Source of the DNA: Promethearchaeota archaeon
GTDB taxonomy: Archaea; Asgardarchaeota; Lokiarchaeia; Sigyniarchaeales; SOKP01
Length of the DNA: 32,000 bases
NCBI GenBank assembly: GCA_030606485.1
Contig: JAUWGH010000011.1
Location: 1 to 32,000, forward strand
Direction: 5' to 3'
Shown: in pieces, positions 2,044-12,568 of the stretch
Position numbering within the stretch: position 1 is the first letter of the stretch
Layout of the letters: each line of letters starts with the position of its first letter
Translations under genes and position numbers: made by a program
Notes under the pieces: model-generated
What the model was told of the DNA's origin: nothing
Seen by the model: the letters and a program-made list of their open reading frames with translations, nothing else
Database searches by the model: none

Positions 2044-2556
2044 ATGAATCTGAAATCCTTAGATGTAGCAATGGCTGCCATAACTGCTGCCTTATATATT
2101 GTTTTAGGCTATTTATTTCAGCCAATTTCATTTTTTGAAATTCAATTTAGAGTAGCTGAAGTTATGGTTGGGATGTGCATTTTATTTCCGATACCGGGGC
2201 TAATTGGCAAAATTATTGGTGTGTTTTTTGTCAATATGACTTCTCCTTTTGTACCCCTTGATTTTATAAGTTGTATTGTGAATATTCCTGCTTTATATTG
2301 CATTATTTTATTTAAAAAACTTGGGAAAGAGGGAAAGCTGATACGATATATTGGTGGAATATTTTATGCTTTAATCATTTCATGTTATGTGGCGTGGCTT
2401 ATAGGATATTGGTTCAGTCTACCTAGTGAGCTTTTCCCTCTGAATTTTTTATATGTATTCATATCCGAAGTAATATTAGCAACGTTGGGCATATACATTT
2501 TTTCAATTATTGAAAAAAGAGTAGATTTTCAAAGATATGAACCTTCTCAAGATTAA
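2044..2556 (+). CDS. queT: QueT-family (queuosine-precursor) ECF transporter S component
   Basis: N-terminal AAITAALYIVLGYLFQPISFFEIQFRVAEVM matches the QueT signature (AALY...PISF..IQFRVAE). The protein is about 170 aa with multiple TM helices. Confidence 0.8.
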   Translation: MNLKSLDVAMAAITAALYIVLGYLFQPISFFEIQFRVAEVMVGMCILFPIPGLIGKIIGVFFVNMTSPFVPLDFISCIVNIPALYCIILFKKLGKEGKLIRYIGGIFYALIISCYVAWLIGYWFSLPSELFPLNFLYVFISEVILATLGIYIFSIIEKRVDFQRYEPSQD

Positions 2557-2559
2557 TAT

Positions 2560-3657
2560 TTAAATGAAGACCTCATTAACAATATCTTCAATAGGTTTGA
2601 ATATATTCAAATTGCCATCCCATGTTTTTAAAATGTTAAAAAATATTTTTTCGATTCTTTGGACAAAGTTTTTTAAAGTAATTCGAATTGATTCAAGATC
2701 TTCTTCACAAACTAGCACTCCAATAATATATTTTCCCGGCTGGAATATCATGGTCTTTCCTTCTTTTTCAATAATAGAGATATCCTTTTTATCAGTGATT
2801 GATTCTAATATGATTTGAACACTTGATAAAGCCCCCGAAGCTACAATTTCATCAAAAGATTTCCTTTTTTCTCGAAAGTGTTTAGTATATAGACAGAGTC
2901 CAGATTGCATAATTATATAAATAGAATCTATTTTTTCTTTCCAAAAGTATTCAGTTATTGATGATATAGAGAGAAAATATAGAGAAAGTAATACCAACCC
3001 GATTATTTGAAAGACAGCACCTATTAATCTACCAACCAAACCAAATAGATTTACTATTACATCCGTGGTTAATGCATAGCCAATATTGAGGAAAATAAAT
3101 CCACTAAATAATTCAAATAAATGCCATTTGAAGTTTTTCAATACCTTTTTTAATTCCTTACTAGTACTAACTTTTATCAAATAATGGAAGAAAAATACAA
3201 AATATATCATCCAAGAGAAAAAAAATGAGAATGTTTTTGTAAATACTGATTCAATAAAAAAACAGATAACAAAGAGAATCATAAATACTGTAAAAATAAA
3301 GGTAAATAGATATTTTTTAAAAAAGATTTGAAATTTTTCCATATTATAGATAAATAATAGTCCAGATATCATTTGTACAAAATAAGCAAAATTCAATAAT
3401 ATAAGTCGTATATGTAAATCTTCAACATAATAATCTGAAATAATATAAATTAACCACATAAGAGAATAGCCAAGACAAAACCAACTAAAAGCCTTCCATT
3501 GCAAATTAGATATTTCTTCTTTTTTATTTTTAGATTTAATCCAAAGAATAATACCAATTTCAAGAGCAAAAAAAATTACAATCTCTTCCATAATCAATAA
3601 AGGTTCTTGAAATGGCCCTTGTATCGGAAAATTAACTCCATTAAGCATAATTAACAT
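2560..3657 (-). CDS. 7TM membrane protein with C-terminal longin/roadblock-like cytoplasmic domain
   Basis: Seven hydrophobic segments lie in about the first 235 aa. The soluble tail IDSIYIIMQSGLCLYTKHF...SGALSSVQIILESI...IIEKEGKTMIFQPGKYIIGVLVCEE...LKNFVQRIEKIF...WDGNLNIFKP has the beta-beta-alpha-beta-beta-beta-alpha-alpha pattern of longin-like folds (by eye). Confidence 0.7.
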   Translation of the reverse strand: MLIMLNGVNFPIQGPFQEPLLIMEEIVIFFALEIGIILWIKSKNKKEEISNLQWKAFSWFCLGYSLMWLIYIISDYYVEDLHIRLILLNFAYFVQMISGLLFIYNMEKFQIFFKKYLFTFIFTVFMILFVICFFIESVFTKTFSFFFSWMIYFVFFFHYLIKVSTSKELKKVLKNFKWHLFELFSGFIFLNIGYALTTDVIVNLFGLVGRLIGAVFQIIGLVLLSLYFLSISSITEYFWKEKIDSIYIIMQSGLCLYTKHFREKRKSFDEIVASGALSSVQIILESITDKKDISIIEKEGKTMIFQPGKYIIGVLVCEEDLESIRITLKNFVQRIEKIFFNILKTWDGNLNIFKPIEDIVNEVFI

Positions 3658-3668
3658 TAAAATATGTT

Positions 3669-4820
3669 CTAATTCATTTTTAAAATATTTTTCATAATTG
3701 TATCAAAACTTGAAAATATCCTTTCTGTACTACTTCCATCTAGAAATTCTAAAATGGGAATTACATGTTTATACATCCATTGAAATTGATTTTTAATGGT
3801 TGTTAAAAAATATTTATTGCTATCCATTTCTCCTTTAACCAATAAAATAAAGAAAATATTAGAAATCGGCTCTTCTCCATATTCTAAAAGAATTGAAAAC
3901 CCGCCTTGTTTAATTTGTTTAATTTTCTTATCTTTTGTTTCTGCAACAGCAGTAAAGATTTCAATAATTCCAATCATTCCATGTGATATTAATTTTATAC
4001 TTTCATTAATATTTATGAGAGTTTTTTTTGAATTATCCATATCTTCTGTGTATGATGTGAAATTATATGAATATAGTTTTTTAAGTGTTTTTCGATTTAT
4101 AATAAAAAGGCTTATTAGATTTTGTTTCCAAAAAAATTCAAGAAAAACTGGAAATCTTAATGCTCCCAATAATAAAATTATTAATCCTAAACTTAGTGTG
4201 GTAATAAATGGTATAGCAATAATAGGGTTTTGTATTTGAGTTTCAAGATCACTTACTGGTATAAATCCAATAATTATCGCTGAAATAATTATTAATGCTC
4301 CTAAAAATATAAACCTCAATCTTTTTTTTATAATACCACTCGACAATCTAATTAGGTTAAGTTGGAAAATTAGAAAAAATAGAAAATCTATAGATATGAA
4401 AATAGTAGCAAAATGAAATTCAGTAGTTGCTGGATTAAATATAAAAATTGAAATAAATGGAAAAATATTCATAAATATCAATATTTTTGTTAATGTAGGG
4501 TTAATTATTTCTTTATACACTTTTGAGGAAATATGATATAGAATTAATACGCTTGCGATTAATACCAGTAAATAAACAATCCTTGCAAAAATATCTTTGA
4601 TAAAAATGTTAGTAATATAAAAATCGTTAATTATATCAAATAAACACCCGGTTATTGACAAGCCAAAAAATATTCCATAATATAGTAAAATCTTATTTAA
4701 TTCTATTTTTCTTTCTCGATGTCTATAATAATAATAAAGAAAATAGAAGGACATTTGATATCCAATAATAAATGATATAAAAATAAAGGGCAAATAAAAT
4801 GTTCTTAGTTCTACGGTCAT
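3669..4820 (-). CDS. 7TM membrane protein with C-terminal longin/roadblock-like domain (divergent paralog of 2560-3657)
   Basis: Seven hydrophobic segments are followed by LISLFIINRKTLKKLYSYNF...LISHGMIGIIEIF...IKQIKQGGFSILLEYG...IFFILLVKGEM...LTTIKNQFQWMY. The gene is co-oriented and 11 nt upstream of its paralog. Confidence 0.65.
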   Translation of the reverse strand: MTVELRTFYLPFIFISFIIGYQMSFYFLYYYYRHRERKIELNKILLYYGIFFGLSITGCLFDIINDFYITNIFIKDIFARIVYLLVLIASVLILYHISSKVYKEIINPTLTKILIFMNIFPFISIFIFNPATTEFHFATIFISIDFLFFLIFQLNLIRLSSGIIKKRLRFIFLGALIIISAIIIGFIPVSDLETQIQNPIIAIPFITTLSLGLIILLLGALRFPVFLEFFWKQNLISLFIINRKTLKKLYSYNFTSYTEDMDNSKKTLININESIKLISHGMIGIIEIFTAVAETKDKKIKQIKQGGFSILLEYGEEPISNIFFILLVKGEMDSNKYFLTTIKNQFQWMYKHVIPILEFLDGSSTERIFSSFDTIMKNILKMN

Positions 4821-4911
4821 AAACTCTGATTACTCGATTTTTTAAAAAATTATACTAATTATTTTATTATAAAACTAAAATTTTTTTAATCAAATTTGAA
4901 ATGGGCGTGAA

Positions 4912-4935
4912 TTCTAGATCTAATAAGATCTTGAA
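4912..4935. promoter_or_regulatory. Inverted repeat TTCTAGATCT-AATA-AGATCTTGAA in a divergent intergenic region; candidate operator
   Basis: The 10-bp arms match 9/10 across a 4-nt spacer, between the 7TM pair and the amidohydrolase. Confidence 0.3.
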
Positions 4936-5174
4936 ATTTTTTTTCTTATCCTTCTAGAGATATAAAACTACTATAGATAAATAAAATTAATTGAAAAATA
5001 AATAATTATTTAATTAACAATGAATATTAACTTTTTTCTATGCATAATATTTTATTATGAAATCCATTAAGTATAACTCAAAATTACAATTCGAATTTCA
5101 TTAGGTATATATATTGTAGAAAATATATTTATAAATTATAATTTTTGATAAGAAAAAATTTAGTGTTGGTAAAA

Positions 5175-6908
5175 ATGAGTAATAATAATTCTTTTGTAAA
5201 TTATGTTACTTTAGGTGGAATAATTCTTTTCTTTTTTACAGTATTAGTTGCATTATTTGCATGGATTACATATGGAACAATAGAAGGAGTGTTGGGATCA
5301 CTTGCATATATTATTGTAGGTGTGTTGAATATTTTTCCATGGATAATACCTTTTGCGGGAATTCCATTGGGGATTTTAGATATTCTTGGGTTTTTTGGAC
5401 AGGGGATGTATAGTTTAACATTAAATTTAGCGCATCTCAATCATAGTTGGATGCCTTTTTTATGGTATTGGGTTGTAGCTATTATTGCTAGTATAATCGA
5501 TATAGTATTTATGTTGCTCATAATTTCATGGCTAAGAGGATTAAAGTACAGAAAAAAAGAGCCAAAAACAAATATTGCGTTAATTAATTGTAATATTATC
5601 GATGGGAATCGCGATAGTGAAGTAATTAAAGATGGAGTAATTTTAATTAAAAATATTGTAAAAGAAAACGAAACGCCTGGTTTAATTGTAGGTGTTGGAA
5701 AAAAGGATGCAATTGAAATACCAGGGGATTATAAAAAGATAGATCTTAAAGATGCCTATGTGCTTCCTGGATTAATTAATGCCCATTGTCATTTATCTGG
5801 TAGTGGAAAACCAATGAAAATAATGAATCTTAGTGATAAAATGCTGAGTATTTTAATGAAACTATTTAAAACACCTTTAGGAAAGATTCTTCTTATTAAA
5901 ATGATGAAAAAAAATGTTTTAAACGCTTTAAATGCCGGTGTAACAACGCTTAGGTCATTAAGTGATCCTTTTTATTTAGATGTAAAATTAAGAAAGAAAA
6001 TTGAAAAGGGAAAATTTGTTGGGCCTAGATTAATTTGTGCTGGTCAAGGAATTTGTATTACTGGTGGTCATGGAGCTATAATGGGTTATGTTGCAGATTC
6101 AATACCTGAAATAAGGAAATGTATTAGAAAAAACCTTCGAAAAGAGGTTGATTGTATAAAAATCCTTTCAACTGGGGGTGTTATGGATGCTAGAAAAGTG
6201 GGAGAGGCTGGAAGACCTCAGATGACCGTCGAGGAAATTGAGACCGCTTGTTTTGAAGCTCACCGGGGAGGTTTATTAATCGCAACCCACTGTGAAAGTA
6301 CAGAAGGAATTAAAGAAGCTCTCTTAGGCGGTGTTGATACAATTGAACATGGAGCTGAAATCACAGACGAACTCGTACCATTATTTAAAAACAACCCAAA
6401 ATCTCTACGAGGGTATACAGCGTTAATACCCACCGTCATAGCAGGTATGGGGATGGCCACACTCCCGATTAAAGTAACAAAAATAACACAAGTGAAACAT
6501 GAAAATGCGAAGCTGATAGAAATAGGAATGATTAAAGGATTACAAAGAGCTTATAAGGAAGGTATAAAATTAGGCCTTGGAACGGATGCTTCAGTTCCTT
6601 ATTCTACTCATTATGAGGTTTGGAAAGAATTAAAACATTATCTTAAATATACAGATATGACATCCCAAGATGCGATATATTTTGCAACAAAAAATAACGC
6701 AGAAATAATCGGGATCGATGATATAACTGGTACTATAGAGACTGGAAAATCGGCAGACCTTCAAGTTGTTCCTGGGAATCCTCTTGAAAATATTGATTTT
6801 CTTGGAGAAGTTTTTAAAGTAATAATACAAGGGAATTTAATCAAAAACCCTAAAGTGAAAAAAATAAAGAAACTAAAGGAATTTGAACCAATAAAATTAT
6901 CCAGTTAA
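5175..6908 (+). CDS. Amidohydrolase-superfamily metallohydrolase (prolidase/carboxypeptidase-like subtype) with an N-terminal membrane domain
   Basis: Motifs VLPGLINAHCHL, AGVTTLRSL, GPRLICAG, TGGHG, IKILSTGGV, ATHCE, TIEHG, GTDA and GTIETGKSADL. About 120 hydrophobic residues precede the enzyme. ATG 5175 is preferred over the track start at 5145. Confidence 0.85.
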   Translation: MSNNNSFVNYVTLGGIILFFFTVLVALFAWITYGTIEGVLGSLAYIIVGVLNIFPWIIPFAGIPLGILDILGFFGQGMYSLTLNLAHLNHSWMPFLWYWVVAIIASIIDIVFMLLIISWLRGLKYRKKEPKTNIALINCNIIDGNRDSEVIKDGVILIKNIVKENETPGLIVGVGKKDAIEIPGDYKKIDLKDAYVLPGLINAHCHLSGSGKPMKIMNLSDKMLSILMKLFKTPLGKILLIKMMKKNVLNALNAGVTTLRSLSDPFYLDVKLRKKIEKGKFVGPRLICAGQGICITGGHGAIMGYVADSIPEIRKCIRKNLRKEVDCIKILSTGGVMDARKVGEAGRPQMTVEEIETACFEAHRGGLLIATHCESTEGIKEALLGGVDTIEHGAEITDELVPLFKNNPKSLRGYTALIPTVIAGMGMATLPIKVTKITQVKHENAKLIEIGMIKGLQRAYKEGIKLGLGTDASVPYSTHYEVWKELKHYLKYTDMTSQDAIYFATKNNAEIIGIDDITGTIETGKSADLQVVPGNPLENIDFLGEVFKVIIQGNLIKNPKVKKIKKLKEFEPIKLSS

Positions 6909-6969
6909 AAATTTCTTTTATTTATTTCTTTTTTATTATTTAAATTTTAATTTTAGTGTTTAAGAATTA

Positions 6970-7518
6970 TTATTCTCTCCATCTTTTAACATGTTCCCCA
7001 GAAACTCCTAATAAATCCATAAGTCTATTGATTGTATGTTCAATTAGATCATTAATAGTCTCTGGTTTTGTATAGAAAGCTGGCATTAAAGGAGCAATTA
7101 TCACTCCCAATTTGGCCAATTTACTCATATTTTCCAAATGGATTGGTGAGAGTGGAGATTCTCTTGGGCATAAGATTAACTTTCTTTTTTCCTTCATACA
7201 TACTTCAGCTGCTCTGATTATCAAATTATTTGCAATTCCGTTCGCAATTAAGCCCAAGGTCTTCATTGAACAAGGAATCACAATCATTGCATCAAAAAGG
7301 TGGGAACCACTGGCAATTGAAACATTATAATCATTGAATTCATATACCTTGCCGTACTTACTCAACTCAGCTAGGAAATACGGGTTCTCTTGCTTAATAA
7401 CCTCCTTTCCAACTTCAGAAACAATAATCTCAAGCTCTGCTTTTTTAAATAGTTTTTCAATAAACTTTTGAGCATATATAGCTCCAGATGCGCCAGTAAT
7501 TCCAACTATTACTCTCAT
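6970..7518 (-). CDS. ubiX: Flavin prenyltransferase UbiX
   Basis: VGITGASGAIY, SIASGS, PCSMKTLGLIANGIANNLIIRAAEVCMKEKRKLILCPRESPL and PAFYTKPETI are UbiX/Pad1 signatures. Confidence 0.93.
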   Translation of the reverse strand: MRVIVGITGASGAIYAQKFIEKLFKKAELEIIVSEVGKEVIKQENPYFLAELSKYGKVYEFNDYNVSIASGSHLFDAMIVIPCSMKTLGLIANGIANNLIIRAAEVCMKEKRKLILCPRESPLSPIHLENMSKLAKLGVIIAPLMPAFYTKPETINDLIEHTINRLMDLLGVSGEHVKRWRE

Positions 7519-7520
7519 TA

Positions 7521-8708
7521 CTAAATTATTTCCAATTTTTTCCCGATTCTTTCAATGGCACCTAATGCATTATCTAAATCTTCCTTTGAGAGCAATGCAT
7601 TCATCTGAACCCTTATTCTTGAGAGCTCTTTAGCAACCATGGGAAAGACGATTGGTGTTACGTAGATTGATTCCTCAGTAAATAACAACTCACCTAGTTT
7701 TTGGGCTTTACCTGGATCCCCTACAATTAATGGAATGATCGGAGTTTGTGAATTTCCTGTATTGAAACCCATTTTTTGAACCTCCTTCTTGAAATAATTT
7801 GTGTGATCCCATAATTTTTTTACATGCTCTGGTTCATTTTCAACTACATCAACTGCAGCAATGCAAGCTGCAACCAATCCGGGAGGATGAGCAGTACTAA
7901 GTAGATATGTCCTGCTTTTATTGGTAATATATTCTATCAAATCTTTTGAACCTGCTACTGTTCCACCAAAAACACCAAAACCTTTACTCATTGAACCGCC
8001 TTCAATATGTACTTTTCCTTGTAATTTAAAATGAGCAACTATTCCTCTTCCTTCTCCCAAAACACCTTCACCATGGCAGTCATCAACAAACACCATTGCC
8101 CCATATTCTTCTGCGAATTTTGAAATTTCGTCTAATGGTGCAATATCACCATCCATTGAAAACACTCCATCTGTGATAATAAGGATTCTTCTTGCTCCAC
8201 TTTTATCTGCCTCTTTTAATTGAACTCCTAAGTCAGCTACATCAGTATGTTTATACACTAACCTCTTAGCACTTGTTAATCTTACTCCATCAATTATCGA
8301 ACCATGATTTAATTGATCAGAAATTACAACATCCTCTTTTCCGATTAATTGAGGAATTACCCCTGAATTAACTGCATAACCCGTCTGACATAAAATTGAT
8401 GCTTCAACTTCTTTAAATTTAGCAAACTTTTCTTGAAACTCTCTTGTTAAATCAAACGTTCCCGCAATAACCGGTACTGCCCCTGCACCCGCACCATATT
8501 TATTAATTGCGTCAATTGAAGCCTGCACAACTTTCGGATGTGTCGCAAGACCAAGATAATTATTAGTGTTGAGCATTAATACCTGCTTACCATCTACAAC
8601 AGAGTGTGGTTTTGAAGAAGCTTCAAGATGCCTAATAACCCAATTTAAATTACTATCATATATATTTTTTATTTCCTCTTTAAGAAATGCTTCTGGTTCT
8701 CTTTTCAT
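7521..8708 (-). CDS. kbl: PLP-dependent alpha-oxoamine synthase, most likely 2-amino-3-ketobutyrate CoA ligase (glycine C-acetyltransferase)
   Basis: NNYLGLA, DQLNHGSIIDG, ITDGVFSMDGD, VDDCHGEG and GSMSKGFG (PLP Lys). The divergent threonine dehydrogenase gene supports Kbl over BioF. Confidence 0.85.
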   Translation of the reverse strand: MKREPEAFLKEEIKNIYDSNLNWVIRHLEASSKPHSVVDGKQVLMLNTNNYLGLATHPKVVQASIDAINKYGAGAGAVPVIAGTFDLTREFQEKFAKFKEVEASILCQTGYAVNSGVIPQLIGKEDVVISDQLNHGSIIDGVRLTSAKRLVYKHTDVADLGVQLKEADKSGARRILIITDGVFSMDGDIAPLDEISKFAEEYGAMVFVDDCHGEGVLGEGRGIVAHFKLQGKVHIEGGSMSKGFGVFGGTVAGSKDLIEYITNKSRTYLLSTAHPPGLVAACIAAVDVVENEPEHVKKLWDHTNYFKKEVQKMGFNTGNSQTPIIPLIVGDPGKAQKLGELLFTEESIYVTPIVFPMVAKELSRIRVQMNALLSKEDLDNALGAIERIGKKLEII

Positions 8709-8882
8709 TTAATCATCTTTTATTATTTTGATTTATATTTGTAAAAAAATCTATGTTTAAAACTAATTTTCTGAAAACATATAAGTTTTTCCAAAATTTA
8801 ATTCATTAATATTTCTAAAAAAATAAGTCATAAGACTTTTTTATTTGACTAACCTATGATTATTATCTAAATTTAATCCATT

Positions 8883-9842
8883 ATGAGACTGATAAAAATT
8901 AAAAGAATTCTTGTAATTGGGTCATGCGGTCAAATCGGTAGTGAACTTGTTCCGGCACTTAGAGAGAAGTATGGGAGTAAAAATGTAATTGCAACTGGAA
9001 GACGGACGCCTCCACCTAAAAGCATGCGTGAATCGGGACCGTTTATCTATCTGGAAGCCTTGAATCGTGATGCTCTCGCAAAAGTGATGTATGAGTATGA
9101 GATAAATACAATCTATCACATGGCTTCGATCCTTTCAGCAACTGGAGAAAAAATGCCTCAAACAGCTTGGGAGATAAACATGAATAGCCTAATAAATGTT
9201 CTTGAAATTGGAAGAAGATATAAAATTGAACGTATTATTTGGCCAAGCTCAATTGCCGCTTTCGGACCAACCACTCCGAGAGAACAAACACCAAATGACA
9301 CCATTCTCCAACCCACTACAATGTATGGAATAACAAAAGTGGCCGGAGAACTGTTAGCAGAATACTACTTTAAAAAATTCGGTCTCGACACTCGCTCAAT
9401 GAGACTCCCGGGCATTATCAGTAGTGAAACACCCCCAGGAGGGGGAACAACCGATTATGCCGTAGAAATCTTCTATGAAGCGATCAAGAATAAACGCTAC
9501 ACCTGCTTTGTTAAAGAAGACACTGTTCTGCCAATGATGTACATGCCAGATTGTATAAAATGTATGATCGATTTAATGGAAGCGGATGGTTCAAAATTGA
9601 CCCGTCATATATATAATGTGACGGGATTGAGTTTCTCTGCAGGGGAATTGGCAACTGAAATCAAAAAGCACATACCTGAATTCAAAATCGAGTACAAACC
9701 AGACTTTAGACAAGCAATTGCTGATTCTTGGCCTAAAACTATCGATGATTCCTTAGCACGTGAAGAATGGTCCTGGAATCCAAGCTATAATCTTACAACA
9801 ATGACAAAGGATATGCTTGAAAAACTAAATAAAAGATTGTAA
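8883..9842 (+). CDS. tdh: L-threonine 3-dehydrogenase, SDR/NAD-dependent epimerase type
   Basis: GSCGQIG Rossmann motif, IYHMASILSATGE, PSSIAAFGP, catalytic YGITK, PGGGTTDYAVEIF, LPMMYMPD, YNV and RQAIADSWP are characteristic of SDR-type TDH. Confidence 0.9.
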   Translation: MRLIKIKRILVIGSCGQIGSELVPALREKYGSKNVIATGRRTPPPKSMRESGPFIYLEALNRDALAKVMYEYEINTIYHMASILSATGEKMPQTAWEINMNSLINVLEIGRRYKIERIIWPSSIAAFGPTTPREQTPNDTILQPTTMYGITKVAGELLAEYYFKKFGLDTRSMRLPGIISSETPPGGGTTDYAVEIFYEAIKNKRYTCFVKEDTVLPMMYMPDCIKCMIDLMEADGSKLTRHIYNVTGLSFSAGELATEIKKHIPEFKIEYKPDFRQAIADSWPKTIDDSLAREEWSWNPSYNLTTMTKDMLEKLNKRL

Positions 9843-9942
9843 ACGATACAACGATTTCTTGTTCTCCTTTAAAATCAACTCCATATTAAAAAAAAATATA
9901 ATTTTTATTTATAATTTTGGATTATATCCATTGAAGATATCT

Positions 9943-10266
9943 TTATTTGGGCATTGCTAGTCCTACTAACGGCAATGCTTCCTTTCCGGACATGAAAGTT
10001 TCTATTTCATACCTAAATCCTTCGATGTCTGAATACTCAAGTAACATTTGAATAGACAGACTCATAGCTTCTTCATATTTCCCTTTTTGTATTTCACTAA
10101 TAGCAATAACTTTCATGCCATCTTGAGTTGGTCTCACACCCACTCTTAATATAGGTTTTGCGATAGATGGATCATCAGGATATTTTTTAGTAACTTCTAA
10201 AAATTTTTTCCCAACCTCTGCTGATTTACCAGATGGAAACCAGCTGGTTGTTACCATCAATACCAT
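9943..10266 (-). CDS. Small hypothetical protein (about 107 aa), tandem paralog 1
   Basis: The SD GAGGTGA precedes ATG 10266 (the track's GTG start lies inside the SD). It shares TSWFP, KKYP, DGMK and EGFRYEIET with 10454-10774. Confidence 0.85.
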   Translation of the reverse strand: MVLMVTTSWFPSGKSAEVGKKFLEVTKKYPDDPSIAKPILRVGVRPTQDGMKVIAISEIQKGKYEEAMSLSIQMLLEYSDIEGFRYEIETFMSGKEALPLVGLAMPK

Positions 10267-10291
10267 TAGTTTCACCTCATTTTAAATTTTA

Positions 10292-10315
10292 TTTAATAAA
10301 ATTGGATTTTGAAAC
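10292..10315 (-). repeat. Copy 1 of a 24-nt direct repeat TTTAATAAAATTGGATTTTGAAAC (plus-strand reading) in the leader of paralog 1
   Basis: Identical to 10799-10822. A minus-strand TTAAATAC box lies at 10337-10344. Confidence 0.85.
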
Positions 10316-10453
10316 AAAGAATAATTAAATTATTATGTATTTAAGTCTTTACATTTTCGTCAAGCTACAATTTAATTGATTCCTTCAAAAAAAAGGAAAA
10401 AAAAGAAAATTAGATATGAGAGATATTTTCAACACTAATTTTTTAAATTAGAA

Positions 10454-10774
10454 TTATTCTGGCATTCCTAGACCTACCATTGGCATGGCTTCTGCTCCTG
10501 ATAGATAAGTTTCAATTTCATATCTGAATCCTTCGACAGCACCAAACATAAGCATGCGTTTCATTTCAATATTTAATAACTTTTCTAAATCACCTTTTTT
10601 AGCTTCAGTGATAGAAATGGTTTTCATACCATCTTTAGTAGCCCTCGCACCTACTAATAAGACAGGTTTTTCAAAAGATTCCGTAGGATATTTTTTCATA
10701 ACTTCAATGTATTTCTTTCCAGCCTCAGCTGCTTTGCTAGGTGGAAACCATGAAGTTACCATAATTAATACCAT
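10454..10774 (-). CDS. Small hypothetical protein (106 aa), tandem paralog 2
   Basis: An SD-like GAAGGTA precedes the ATG. It is clearly homologous to 9943-10266 along its full length. Confidence 0.85.
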   Translation of the reverse strand: MVLIMVTSWFPPSKAAEAGKKYIEVMKKYPTESFEKPVLLVGARATKDGMKTISITEAKKGDLEKLLNIEMKRMLMFGAVEGFRYEIETYLSGAEAMPMVGLGMPE

Positions 10775-11035: not shown

Positions 11036-12568
11036 ATGAGCGAGAAAATGAATGTATTATTTATAATGACCGATCAGCAACGAGCTGATCATTTAAGTTG
11101 CGCTGGAAATCCTGCATTAAAAACACCAAATATTGATAGTATAGGAAAAGATGGTATTCGATTCACCAATGCTTTTTGTGCTAATCCTATGTGTATGCCA
11201 AATAGAGCAAGCATGGTTACAGGGTTATATCCAATGGTGCATGGTGTTAGAAGCAATGGAATTAATTTATCTACAGAAATTCCTACTCTAGCCAAGGTTT
11301 TGAAAAAAAGGGGGTATCATACAGCTGCTGTAGGAAAAATGCACTATCAATTTTGGACACCTCCATATAAAATGAAAACTAAATCAACAGAATGTATTGG
11401 TGATTGGTTCGCTGAGAAAGTAGGTAATAATCCTGTACGAGAAAATTTCCCTATCCCATATTATGGATTTGAGGATGTAGAAATGGTACTAGCACATGGT
11501 ACCATGTGCAGCGGACATTACTTTAATTGGTTAAAAGAAAGAAATCCCAAGTATATACCACATTTGAAAAAAAAATATCTGAAATTTCTAGATAATTTTT
11601 TTACATTATTTTGTGATCTTGATTTATCGGAAGAGTATTATAACACTACCTACGTAAAAGAGCGATCTATTGCCTTCCTTGAAAGGTATGCCCATGGAGA
11701 TTACGAGAACAAACCATTCTATTTGCATTGTTCATTTCCAGATCCACACCATCCAGTCTGTCCACCAGGAAAATATAAAGATATGTATAATCCTGATAAA
11801 ATTAATTTCCCCTCGAGTTTTGATGATATCGAGAATTTACGTAATCATCCATTTTTAGGACCACTTTTAGAGGAACCTGTTATTAGAGGGGCGATGTTGC
11901 GTGAATCAACGGAGGAAGAAGTTCGAAATTTTATGGCTTTAACTTATGGATCCTTAACTATGGTCGATGATGCGGTAGGGGAAATTTTAACCACTTTAGA
12001 AAAGTTAGGTTTGACTGATAATACAATAGTAATGTATACAAGTGATCATGGAGATTTAATGGGAGAGCATGGAATGTTGTTAAAAGGACCTTGCCCTTAT
12101 AATTGCTTATTAAACGTCCCTTTACTGTGGAAAGTACCTGGTTTGACAAAACCGTCAGTTTCAGATTCTTTGGTAAGCTCAATTGACTTCACACCGACTA
12201 TTCTCAACATTTTGAATATTAAAGAACGACATCAACCTCCAAATATGCAAGGTCTTGATATAACCTCAATTTTAGAAGATCCTAACAAAAAAGTTAGAGA
12301 TTGTTTTTTAATTGAGGAGGACGAAGAAGTCGGTCCTTACGGTCCTCTTTACACAAGAGTAAGACATTTAATTACAGATACCCATAAGCTAACAGTTTAT
12401 GCAGAATTACCCAGATTTGGGGATTTATTCGACCGTAAGAACGATCCAGACGAGATAAATAATTTATGGTATGATGAGAAGGAACTACAATGCAAAATGT
12501 TGGATAAAATACTTCATGAAAGCCTTAAAATGCAAAGTCGTTATCCTAAAAGAGTATCTGCTACATAA
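11036..12568 (+). CDS. Formylglycine-dependent (Cys-type) sulfatase family hydrolase
   Basis: NVLFIMTDQQRAD, the CMPNRASMVTG (CxPxRxxxxTG) signature, VGKMH, SFPDPHHP and YTSDHGDLMGEHG. ATG 11036 is preferred over TTG 11027. Confidence 0.92.
   Translation: MSEKMNVLFIMTDQQRADHLSCAGNPALKTPNIDSIGKDGIRFTNAFCANPMCMPNRASMVTGLYPMVHGVRSNGINLSTEIPTLAKVLKKRGYHTAAVGKMHYQFWTPPYKMKTKSTECIGDWFAEKVGNNPVRENFPIPYYGFEDVEMVLAHGTMCSGHYFNWLKERNPKYIPHLKKKYLKFLDNFFTLFCDLDLSEEYYNTTYVKERSIAFLERYAHGDYENKPFYLHCSFPDPHHPVCPPGKYKDMYNPDKINFPSSFDDIENLRNHPFLGPLLEEPVIRGAMLRESTEEEVRNFMALTYGSLTMVDDAVGEILTTLEKLGLTDNTIVMYTSDHGDLMGEHGMLLKGPCPYNCLLNVPLLWKVPGLTKPSVSDSLVSSIDFTPTILNILNIKERHQPPNMQGLDITSILEDPNKKVRDCFLIEEDEEVGPYGPLYTRVRHLITDTHKLTVYAELPRFGDLFDRKNDPDEINNLWYDEKELQCKMLDKILHESLKMQSRYPKRVSAT

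Follow-up and report, generated by a model that had tools for sequence, protein, structure and literature searches.

A gene pair encoding seven-helix proteins with cytoplasmic tails

The stretch of DNA considered here, referred to below as the window, comprises 32,000 nucleotides (nt) of contig JAUWGH010000011.1 (assembly GCA_030606485.1) from a Promethearchaeota archaeon of the class Lokiarchaeia. Its minus strand carries two co-oriented genes, the upstream gene A and the downstream gene B, which encode the proteins P0001 and P0002, respectively (Table 1). An earlier interpretation of the same DNA, made from the letters and the open reading frames (ORFs) alone and called here the sequence-only reading, had picked out these two genes, 11 nt apart, had counted seven hydrophobic helices in each product, and had suggested that soluble tails of a longin/roadblock-like pattern could connect a membrane sensor to a small GTPase. 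Both ORFs are confirmed, and so are the seven helices of each protein, on which hydropathy, AlphaFold2 (AF2) models and the distribution of positive charges agree. The short spacer fits co-transcription of A and B, whose common promoter probably lies in the region between A and the divergent gene upstream of it.

The AF2 models, both computed with the family alignment, show seven long helices in P0001 (residues 3-33, 40-68, 72-97, 108-127, 133-159, 162-186 and 199-220; mean predicted local distance difference test score, pLDDT, 81.6; predicted TM-score, pTM, 0.74) and seven in P0002 (residues 17-43, 52-77, 81-107, 117-135, 137-165, 167-195 and 199-230; mean pLDDT 76.6, pTM 0.67), in line with the seven hydrophobic segments that hydropathy finds in each sequence. 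In the loops that connect the helices, the lysine and arginine residues outside versus inside number 2 versus 11 in P0001 and 0 versus 12 in P0002; hence, the N-terminus is placed outside and the C-terminal tail in the cytoplasm. The outer loops are short, 5-18 aa, and there is no ectodomain. The strongest conservation of the whole family is found at the junction between the last transmembrane (TM) helix, TM7, and the tail, where the motif P-x3-E-x2-W retains its proline in 93%, its glutamate in 96% and its tryptophan in 98% of 172 sequences.

The tails have a longin fold

The tail is about 160 aa long in A, with a low-confidence insert included, and about 132 aa long in B. In both models, TM7 is followed by a short juxtamembrane helix and then by elements in the order beta-beta-alpha-beta-beta-beta-alpha-alpha, which is the longin order; in the P0002 tail, the strands (E) and helices (H) given by DSSP for the AF2 model are E243-250, E255-260, H269-287, E294-298, E301-307, E311-317, H322-345 and H350-364. 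Of the two folds named in the sequence-only reading, longin stands, on the grounds of both this order and structural similarity, whereas roadblock does not: neither tail shows the order alpha-beta-beta-alpha-beta-beta-beta(-alpha) of roadblock/LC7 domains of the MglB type, both end in two or more C-terminal helices, and the sole helix ahead of the first strand is the short juxtamembrane linker.

Structure searches against the PDB, performed with the P0002 model rather than with that of P0001, point in the same direction. With VIA-align, residues 242-365 of P0002 matched Sec22b (Z 13.1, root-mean-square deviation (rmsd) 2.3 A, 116 residues aligned of 137), the longin domain of VAMP7 (Z 13.1), synbindin (Z 12.2), sigma subunits of AP complexes (Z 11.7-11.9), Sedlin (Z 11.1) and the solved Lokiarchaeal longin 8yqg (Z 11.1), and roadblock structures ranked below the longins. 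Foldseek with the full-length model yielded no PDB match at E <= 0.001; its top matches, all of weak E value, were without exception longin or roadblock proteins, namely, the longins zeta-COP, AP sigma subunits, VAMP7 and Sec22b (TM-score 0.72 by target) and the roadblock proteins Asgard Roadblock3, MglB and LAMTOR.

The weak sequence signals of the B tails all point to longin families as well. The P0002 tail matches Sybindin in Pfam with an E value of 0.007 (16.8 bits, the cut-off being 25), and, among 41 B tails, sub-threshold matches were obtained to Sybindin in nine (best E 1.8e-4), to Clat_adaptor_s in four, to Fuz_longin_1 in two and to Intu_longin_1 in one. A profile of the B tails found a single match among the PDB sequences, the TRAPP subunit Trs23 (E 0.0026). 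A shape search of the Atlas lists eukaryotic Sybindin and Sedlin subunits of TRAPP (TM-score 0.72), along with Asgard proteins that join a similar domain to V4R or to a helix-turn-helix (HTH) domain. The tail is classed here among the longin-fold domains, the sybindin-type longins of TRAPP being its nearest detectable relatives. The architecture of a longin platform embedded in the membrane can be considered essentially established.

A and B form a conserved pair of old paralogues

The sequence-only reading described A and B as highly diverged. This is the case, with 24% identity between the tails (BLASTP, E 7e-6) and about 18% overall; the two proteins are still clearly homologous, as they can be aligned over their full length and the profiles of the A and B tails match in hhalign with 99.1% probability (E 9e-19). 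Judging from these comparisons, A and B are old paralogues.

When 1.84 billion cluster representatives were searched with a profile, 1187 proteins were retrieved at E <= 1e-3, 336 of them at E <= 1e-30; among the 150 matches listed, nearly all are 350-390 aa long and match end to end. The family members that carry a name are hypothetical proteins of Promethearchaeota or Lokiarchaeota, and those Atlas clusters that show the complete architecture come from archaea (Thorarchaeota, Promethearchaeota) and have no Pfam family. Relatives at 83-94% identity come from metagenome-assembled genomes (MAGs) of Promethearchaeota/Promethearchaeia, and a locus scan with a single protein returned only MAGs of the same genus. 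Within the phylum, the family is present in 164 of 301 sampled genomes (E <= 1e-10), including 60 of the 68 genomes of the window's own family, f1, and 55 of the 76 of family f9.

Tandem pairs occur in f1 and in the neighbouring families f2 and f4, with A preceding B in every two-gene locus sampled; in f8, f9 and f10, the genes are mostly single and group in a clade of their own. In a maximum-likelihood tree, clades A and B mirror each other, including the cases in which a genome holds two or three paralogous pairs (e.g., G030, G019 and G279). The mirrored trees indicate that the pair has been duplicated and inherited as a unit. Together with the fixed order of the two genes, they argue for a heterodimer, and heterodimerization of A and B appears probable from this pattern of inheritance. 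Conservation of the pair across Asgard genomes is, thus, what the heterodimer suggested in the sequence-only reading would lead one to expect, and none of three contrary outcomes, namely, a tail of another fold, a helix count other than seven and a pairing that is not conserved, was encountered.

Small GTPases are encoded next to the pair in relatives

Gene linkage was surveyed in 20-kb regions around 40 family loci, to which L005 was added as the 21st pair locus. A small GTPase gene (~180 aa) lies within 1.5 kb in 10 of the 21 pair loci versus none of the 17 single-gene loci. In the pair loci, 13 GTPase ORFs were found in 83.6 kb of proximal DNA versus 2 in 237.6 kb of distal flank, the background in the window's genome being about 65 GTPase ORFs in 3.75 Mb, i.e., 1.73 per 100 kb; the binomial P of the proximal enrichment is 3e-7, a value computed over related genomes that are not independent. 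The GTPase and the pair occur in at least five arrangements (Table 1), and a family-wide search for GTPases contributed two more adjacent cases (G156:C56 and G117:C8), both divergent. The slot that corresponds to the intergenic region upstream of A in the window is taken, in several related loci, by a small GTPase gene. The link to small GTPases put forward in the sequence-only reading is, thus, supported for the family, both by the gene neighbourhood of about half of the pair loci and by a predicted complex, described below, that passes its controls.

Seven of the adjacent GTPases constitute one clade, and the split within this clade mirrors the two pair lineages. The pair-linked GTPases match the Ras family of Pfam (PF00071) with an E value of 3e-39. 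They have WDFxGE in place of DxxGQ and, therefore, lack the catalytic glutamine; GGKxD replaces NKxD; and the chains end without a cysteine, that is, without a cysteine lipidation motif.

Some loci depart from this picture in their details. In L005 (positions 2116-10746; GCA_019058315.1, JAHPZH010000002.1), three tandem 7TM-longin pairs, i.e., six genes, precede two convergent small GTPase genes, the products of which have canonical DxxGQ and NKxD motifs and belong to another clade than the GTPases linked in the window's family. Two loci, L087:4070-6698 (G207:C10) and L091:4015-6794 (G279:C250), hold four tandem small GTPase genes each; these score 206-245 bits with the profile of the linked clade (A4) and have no 7TM-longin gene near them. 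The GTPase gene convergent with the pair at G279:C77:3344-3856 contains an in-frame TAA and may be a pseudogene or reflect a sequencing error. The adjacent GTPase at L036:11225-11779 (G225:C9) has no ATG, GTG or TTG ahead of the P-loop (the translation reads ...PIIGELAYK...), and an unusual codon such as ATT or ATA may serve as its start.

A predicted complex of the two tails with the GTPase

In L037 (G204:C7), the GTPase (positions 11176-11709), A and B are encoded in this order on one strand, with gaps of 53 nt and 6 nt. The A tail, the B tail and the GTPase of this locus, i.e., the proteins of a relative and not P0001 and P0002, were modelled as a three-chain complex in which each chain had its own alignment and the GTPase was the scored partner, the A-B interface being no part of the score. 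The trio scored 0.86 versus 0.37 for the best of three controls and passed a mark that, in the calibration, had been reached by 58 of 80 solved complexes and by 2 of 110 mismatched pairs. Between runs, at least 97% of the contacts agree, and the pLDDT of the partner is at least 84. In the model, the GTPase is seated on the alpha1 helix of each tail and on a W-x-G loop specific to B, and its contact residues are 27-44, 55-59 and 66-78; from where these lie with respect to the P-loop and WDFxGE, they are assigned to switch I, the interswitch strand and switch II, respectively.

Directly downstream of this trio, on the same strand (L037:7099-8492), lie an ORF for a 239-aa multi-TM protein and an ORF for a 151-aa soluble longin-like protein (hidden Markov model (HMM) of the tail, E 9.7e-5); these two may be further components of the module.

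A proposed membrane platform for a Ras/Rab-like GTPase

The explanation that we lean towards, if only slightly, is that A and B make up a paired 7TM-longin membrane platform for a Ras/Rab-like GTPase. The last TM helix of each protein continues through the P-x3-E-x2-W junction into the cytoplasmic longin domain, and, in this scenario, the two longin tails would most likely pair side by side, by analogy with Bet5-Trs23 (TRAPPC1-C4) and Mon1-Ccz1, so that a platform fixed to the membrane would be formed. This platform would bind the switch regions of the GTPase and would recruit it to the membrane, control its nucleotide state, or do both. Binding of a GTPase seems reasonably probable for the family as a whole; the biochemical role of the pair, as a variant of the longin GTPase platform, is putative.

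The role of the seven-helix body

The sequence-only reading assigned to the 7TM body the sensing of an external signal. If so, the bundles would bind an external ligand or sense a property of the membrane, the signal would pass through the E-x2-W junction, and the longin dimer would be a signal-controlled guanine nucleotide exchange factor (GEF) or GTPase-activating protein (GAP). It speaks for such a receptor that the seven-helix body has been kept across more than 1000 representatives, though a single helix would be enough for anchoring, and that the junction between TM7 and the longin domain, where coupling would take place, is precisely the site of the family's most conserved motif; within the TM helices themselves, however, no polar or charged residue is conserved among the same 172 sequences. 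The N-out/C-in topology would suit a receptor, yet the outer loops are short and an ectodomain is absent. The closest structural matches of residues 13-233 of P0002 in VIA-align are likewise receptor-type bundles, namely, the designed G protein-coupled receptor (GPCR)-like fold GLF_18 (Z 13.6), ADGRL3 (Z 13.1), CD97 and GPR156 (both Z 12.8) and GABA-B (Z 12.5), followed by AdipoR2 and channelrhodopsins (Z 11-12); the rmsd is 3.6-4.2 A for GLF_18, ADGRL3 and GPR156. Z values up to about 13 are, however, common for helical bundles. No 7TM family of Pfam was matched by P0001, by P0002 or by any of 41 full-length A members (E up to 0.05-10). Because such matches and conserved intramembrane polar residues are both absent, the likeness to GPCRs is treated here as one of arrangement with no evidence of homology, which agrees with the sequence-only reading, where GPCR-like logic was proposed without implying common descent.

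The rate of evolution can be read in two ways. Within the genus, omega of the 7TM parts of the two genes is 0.4-1.6, an estimate derived from few substitutions, and that of the tails is 0.15-0.33. Membrane parts that outpace the tails are what one would expect of receptors under diversifying selection, but relaxed constraint explains the difference equally well, and the faster evolution could be due to either. On balance, sensing of an external signal by the 7TM bodies, for which we find no positive support, is unlikely, and it is similarly improbable that the pair is a genuine receptor-to-small-GTPase device, in which the bundles would sense a ligand or the state of the membrane and thereby shift the fused longin heterodimer between states of GTPase binding or exchange.

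The longin tail is not restricted to seven-helix bodies. The genome of the window encodes a 550-aa protein (C5:294514-296163 (+), the same as L002:298-1947) with about 11 TM helices, a body that weakly matches MFS_1 (E 1.6e-5, below the cut-off) and a longin-type tail (tail HMM, E 6e-19); hence, the tail is a module that is found on different polytopic bodies. This would suit an inside-out arrangement in which the membrane body is the effector, a transporter or a channel, and is regulated from the cytoplasm by the longin tails together with the bound GTPase. A transporter body is tied to the Ragulator-Rag roadblock/longin system in eukaryotes, namely that of SLC38A9. The 7TM body of A and B, however, has neither conserved polar residues that could line a pathway nor a match to a transporter family, and GPCR-like packed seven-helix bundles are untypical of transporters, which makes the inside-out arrangement very unlikely.

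Two more longin-like proteins are encoded in the same genome. One, at C5:315470-316549 (+), adds a third case of a longin-like tail (tail HMM, E 3e-6) combined with seven hydrophobic segments; the protein has strongly diverged, and its gene stands unpaired, 12 kb from the nearest GTPase. The other, at C6:120534-121286 (+), consists of a soluble longin-like domain followed by an HTH-like C-terminal part (cf. HTH_47 in the Atlas) and is located 3-6 kb from two genes with GTPase domains, C6:116467-117423 and C6:113203-114540.

The window's own copy and the evidence against a GTPase partner

The platform explanation, with a Ras/Rab-like GTPase as the partner of the paired longin tails, has to face a number of observations that weigh against it. 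In Pfam, neither the whole proteins nor the tails gave anything above the cut-off, and for the A proteins and their tails the longin models gave no match at all. Eleven of the 21 pair loci and all 17 single-gene loci have no adjacent GTPase. Out of sample, 14 further GTPases reach 243-257 bits with the linked-clade profile, and only 3 of them adjoin a 7TM-longin pair (G318:C139, G317:C21 and G301:C12), while none of six lower-scoring ones does; the linkage is, in other words, strong when viewed from the pair and partial when viewed from the GTPase subfamily. As to the trio model, its score may partly reflect likeness to known structures, because longin-GTPase and roadblock-GTPase complexes have already been solved, and a three-chain job with separate alignments differs from the set-up in which the scoring was calibrated. 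The alignment columns that contact the GTPase are not more conserved than other tail columns, in a comparison that includes the buried core.

In the window itself, the GTPase link of the sequence-only reading does not hold in the form of adjacency. No GTPase is encoded beside the pair anywhere in the genus, where synteny is conserved; tblastn revealed no remnant or pseudogene of a GTPase next to the window's pair, the nearest GTPase gene being 53 kb away; and, in a quick tree (SH-aLRT 90), the pair-linked GTPase clade has no member in the window's genome. One could, therefore, surmise that the pair of this genome does without a GTPase, its tails being dimerization or adaptor modules for some other cytoplasmic partner, and that the adjacency seen elsewhere is lineage-specific. 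The single-gene members in other Asgard families, with an adjacency of 0/17, would accord with such a view. Longin domains do have roles unrelated to GTPases, in the regulation of SNAREs and as sigma and zeta subunits of adaptors, and the longins of SNAREs and adaptors are among the best fold matches of the P0002 tail. However, both genes are intact, and their tails are under purifying selection; omega of the neighbouring QueT gene is 0.15-0.24. The residues around the W-x-G loop that contacts the GTPase in the trio model are kept in P0002 (LKTWDGNL), and the genome still encodes four GTPases with WDFxGE and GGKxD motifs (Table 1), which fall into the sister group of the linked clade. We consider a GTPase-free pair quite unlikely. 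The window's pair most likely serves one of these four GTPases in trans, and the case for GTPase binding by the window's own copy is evenly balanced. None of the four has another 7TM-longin gene near it.

One 7-TM protein encoded next to C8:362286 was considered as a family member and rejected, as it does not match the family profiles; it carries a GSNDETMANVVG motif, which we take to be of the PiT phosphate-transporter type.

Table 1. The 7TM-longin pair of the window, its parts and surroundings, the GTPase genes of the same genome with WDFxGE motifs, and the positions of GTPase genes relative to the pair in related loci
Feature	Window position, genomic position or loci	Strand	Basis or remarks
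Gene A (P0001, 383 aa)	3669..4820	-	Upstream pair member; ORF and translation; clade A in family tree
Gene A residues 1-222, seven-helix membrane domain, N-terminus outside	4155..4820	-	Hydropathy, AF2, K+R counts
Gene A residues 223-383, juxtamembrane helix and longin domain	3672..4154	-	AF2 secondary structure; tail profile E 1.4e-51
Gene A residues 261-296, low-confidence insert			Within longin tail (AF2)
Gene A motif PVFLEFFW (P224-x3-E228-x2-W231), TM7/longin junction	4128..4151	-	Translation-checked coordinates
Spacer of 11 nt, AACATATTTTA on coding strand	3658..3668	-	Stop of A to ATG of B; read directly
Gene B (P0002, 365 aa)	2560..3657	-	Downstream pair member; ORF and translation; clade B in family tree
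Gene B residues 1-232, seven-helix membrane domain, N-terminus outside	2962..3657	-	Hydropathy, AF2, K+R counts
Gene B residues 233-365, juxtamembrane helix and longin domain	2563..2961	-	VIA-align over 242-365; weak Sybindin match
Gene B motif SSITEYFW (E236-x2-W239; Ser replaces usual Pro), TM7/longin junction	2941..2964	-	Translation-checked; E236 and W239 invariant in alignment A1
Intergenic region, 324 nt, AT-rich, between A and divergent amidohydrolase gene	4821..5144	.	Sequence, neighbour annotation
WDFxGE GTPases of the window's genome	C10:640296-640874; C8:39290-39841; C5:211205-211756; C8:362286-362828
GTPase upstream of pair, same strand	G225, G204, G071, G159, G228, G246, G099		Gaps 53-130 nt
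GTPase downstream of pair, same strand	G138, G030, G279
GTPase divergent from pair	G213, G216
GTPase convergent with pair	G279:C77, L005
GTPase 0.9-1.3 kb upstream of pair	G113, G267, G183

Within the genus, the gene order amidohydrolase, A, B, QueT is kept; the QueT transporter gene lies downstream of B and is convergent with it. The window is AT-rich (G+C 22-38%), its other genes code for metabolic enzymes and transporters, and, by gene annotation, no GTPase, roadblock or other signalling gene is found elsewhere in it. Antisense to gene A, an ORF of 147 aa (window 3796-4239 (+)) is also open in relatives of the same genus, because it overlaps the conserved gene A; it is most likely spurious.

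Comparison with known systems

The 7TM-longin pair shares traits with several well-studied systems. The closest, by sequence, is the TRAPP core formed by Bet5 and Trs23 (TRAPPC1-TRAPPC4; Sybindin, PF04099), a GEF platform for Rab, which is the source of the only sequence-level signals obtained for the tails. TRAPP likewise has the longin fold in two paralogous subunits, with pairing presumed for A and B, and the trio model would place the GTPase on the alpha1 face via its switch regions, as in TRAPP. The TRAPP subunits, however, are soluble and operate with subunits of the Bet3 type, whereas the longins of A and B are C-terminal tails of 7TM proteins, have no adjacent TRAPPC3/V4R partner, score below the Pfam cut-offs, and have a GEF role that is putative.

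MglB with its partner MglA, as well as the roadblock and longin proteins of Asgard archaea (Tran et al. 2024, PMC10933270), provide the precedent of a prokaryotic dimeric platform from the same superfamily that is linked genetically to a small GTPase. In contrast to the tails of A and B, MglB is a soluble roadblock protein with another order of helices and strands, a homodimer that acts as a GAP/GEF for a Ras-like GTPase. In the Asgard archaeon MK-D1, GTPase genes are generally not found in operons with roadblock or longin genes (Tran et al. 2024), unlike the 7TM-longin pairs, about half of which adjoin a GTPase gene.

The eukaryotic assembly Ragulator-Rag with SLC38A9 and the longin GAPs FLCN-FNIP and GATOR1 resemble the proposed platform in that a roadblock/longin heterodimer is held at a membrane near a polytopic protein and controls a small GTPase, and the idea of SLC38A9 as a transceptor is echoed by the MFS-like paralogue that carries the same tail. 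In eukaryotes, however, the membrane link is made by the lipidated scaffold LAMTOR1 or by a separate transporter, whereas here the fusion is covalent, and the pair-linked GTPases of Asgard archaea are Ras/Rab-like rather than Rag.

With GPCRs, A and B share the seven helices, the N-out/C-in topology and, as proposed, a cytoplasmic output toward a GTPase, GPCR-type bundles being the top matches of the body. They differ in having neither sequence similarity to the 7TM families of Pfam nor conserved intramembrane polar residues, and in a structural similarity of generic extent. Moreover, GPCRs are GEFs for heterotrimeric G proteins, whereas the output of A and B would pass via the fused longin to a small monomeric GTPase.

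The longin SNAREs (Sec22b, VAMP7 and Ykt6), which include the top matches of the tail, are another case of a longin domain in a membrane-anchored protein. Their longin domain is N-terminal, however, and is followed by the SNARE coiled coil and one C-terminal TM helix, where A and B have seven TM helices. A SNARE-like role of A and B was considered and rejected, since the order of domains is reversed and the models contain no coiled coil. A role akin to that of SRX in signal recognition was likewise rejected, as there is no context of the SR-beta type.

Implications for GTPase regulation in Asgard archaea

That small GTPases are served by longin and roadblock platforms is well established (Levine et al. 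2013, PMC3747258; Tran et al. 2024). A preprint by Liu et al. (2020) lists many Asgard longin fusions, and a preprint of 2026 mentions structural clusters of Asgard 7TM and GPCR-like proteins, with longin tails not specified. In a literature search that did not extend to the asCOG tables of Liu et al. (2020), we found no description of a 7TM-longin fusion, of the A/B pairing or of the linkage to a GTPase clade.

Asgard genomes encode dozens of small GTPases and dozens of longin and roadblock proteins, and these regulators have for the most part not been assigned to their GTPases. Dey et al. (2016, PMC4917890) noted that CAAX motifs and prenyltransferases are lacking and raised the question of whether operons could reveal GTPase targets; according to Tran et al. 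(2024), gene order is rarely helpful for matching regulators to GTPases. How GTPases that have no lipid anchor reach a membrane is a question on which the 7TM-longin family may bear.

Should the unlikely receptor interpretation prove true, the pair would be an Asgard membrane receptor that directly drives a Ras/Rab-like switch, would supply the missing membrane anchor for Asgard GTPases without lipid modification, and would be, in terms of function, a forerunner of GPCR-G protein and SLC38A9-Ragulator-Rag signalling or an analogue of it. The family offers a concrete and testable case: a longin platform built into the membrane, in the form of a conserved A/B pair, which in about half of the pair loci is encoded beside a defined subfamily of GTPases without the catalytic glutamine. 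If this platform binds or regulates the GTPase, the two would be the first matched pair of a membrane regulator and a GTPase in Asgard archaea and, if true, this would bear on the origin of GTPase-controlled membrane identity before eukaryotes.

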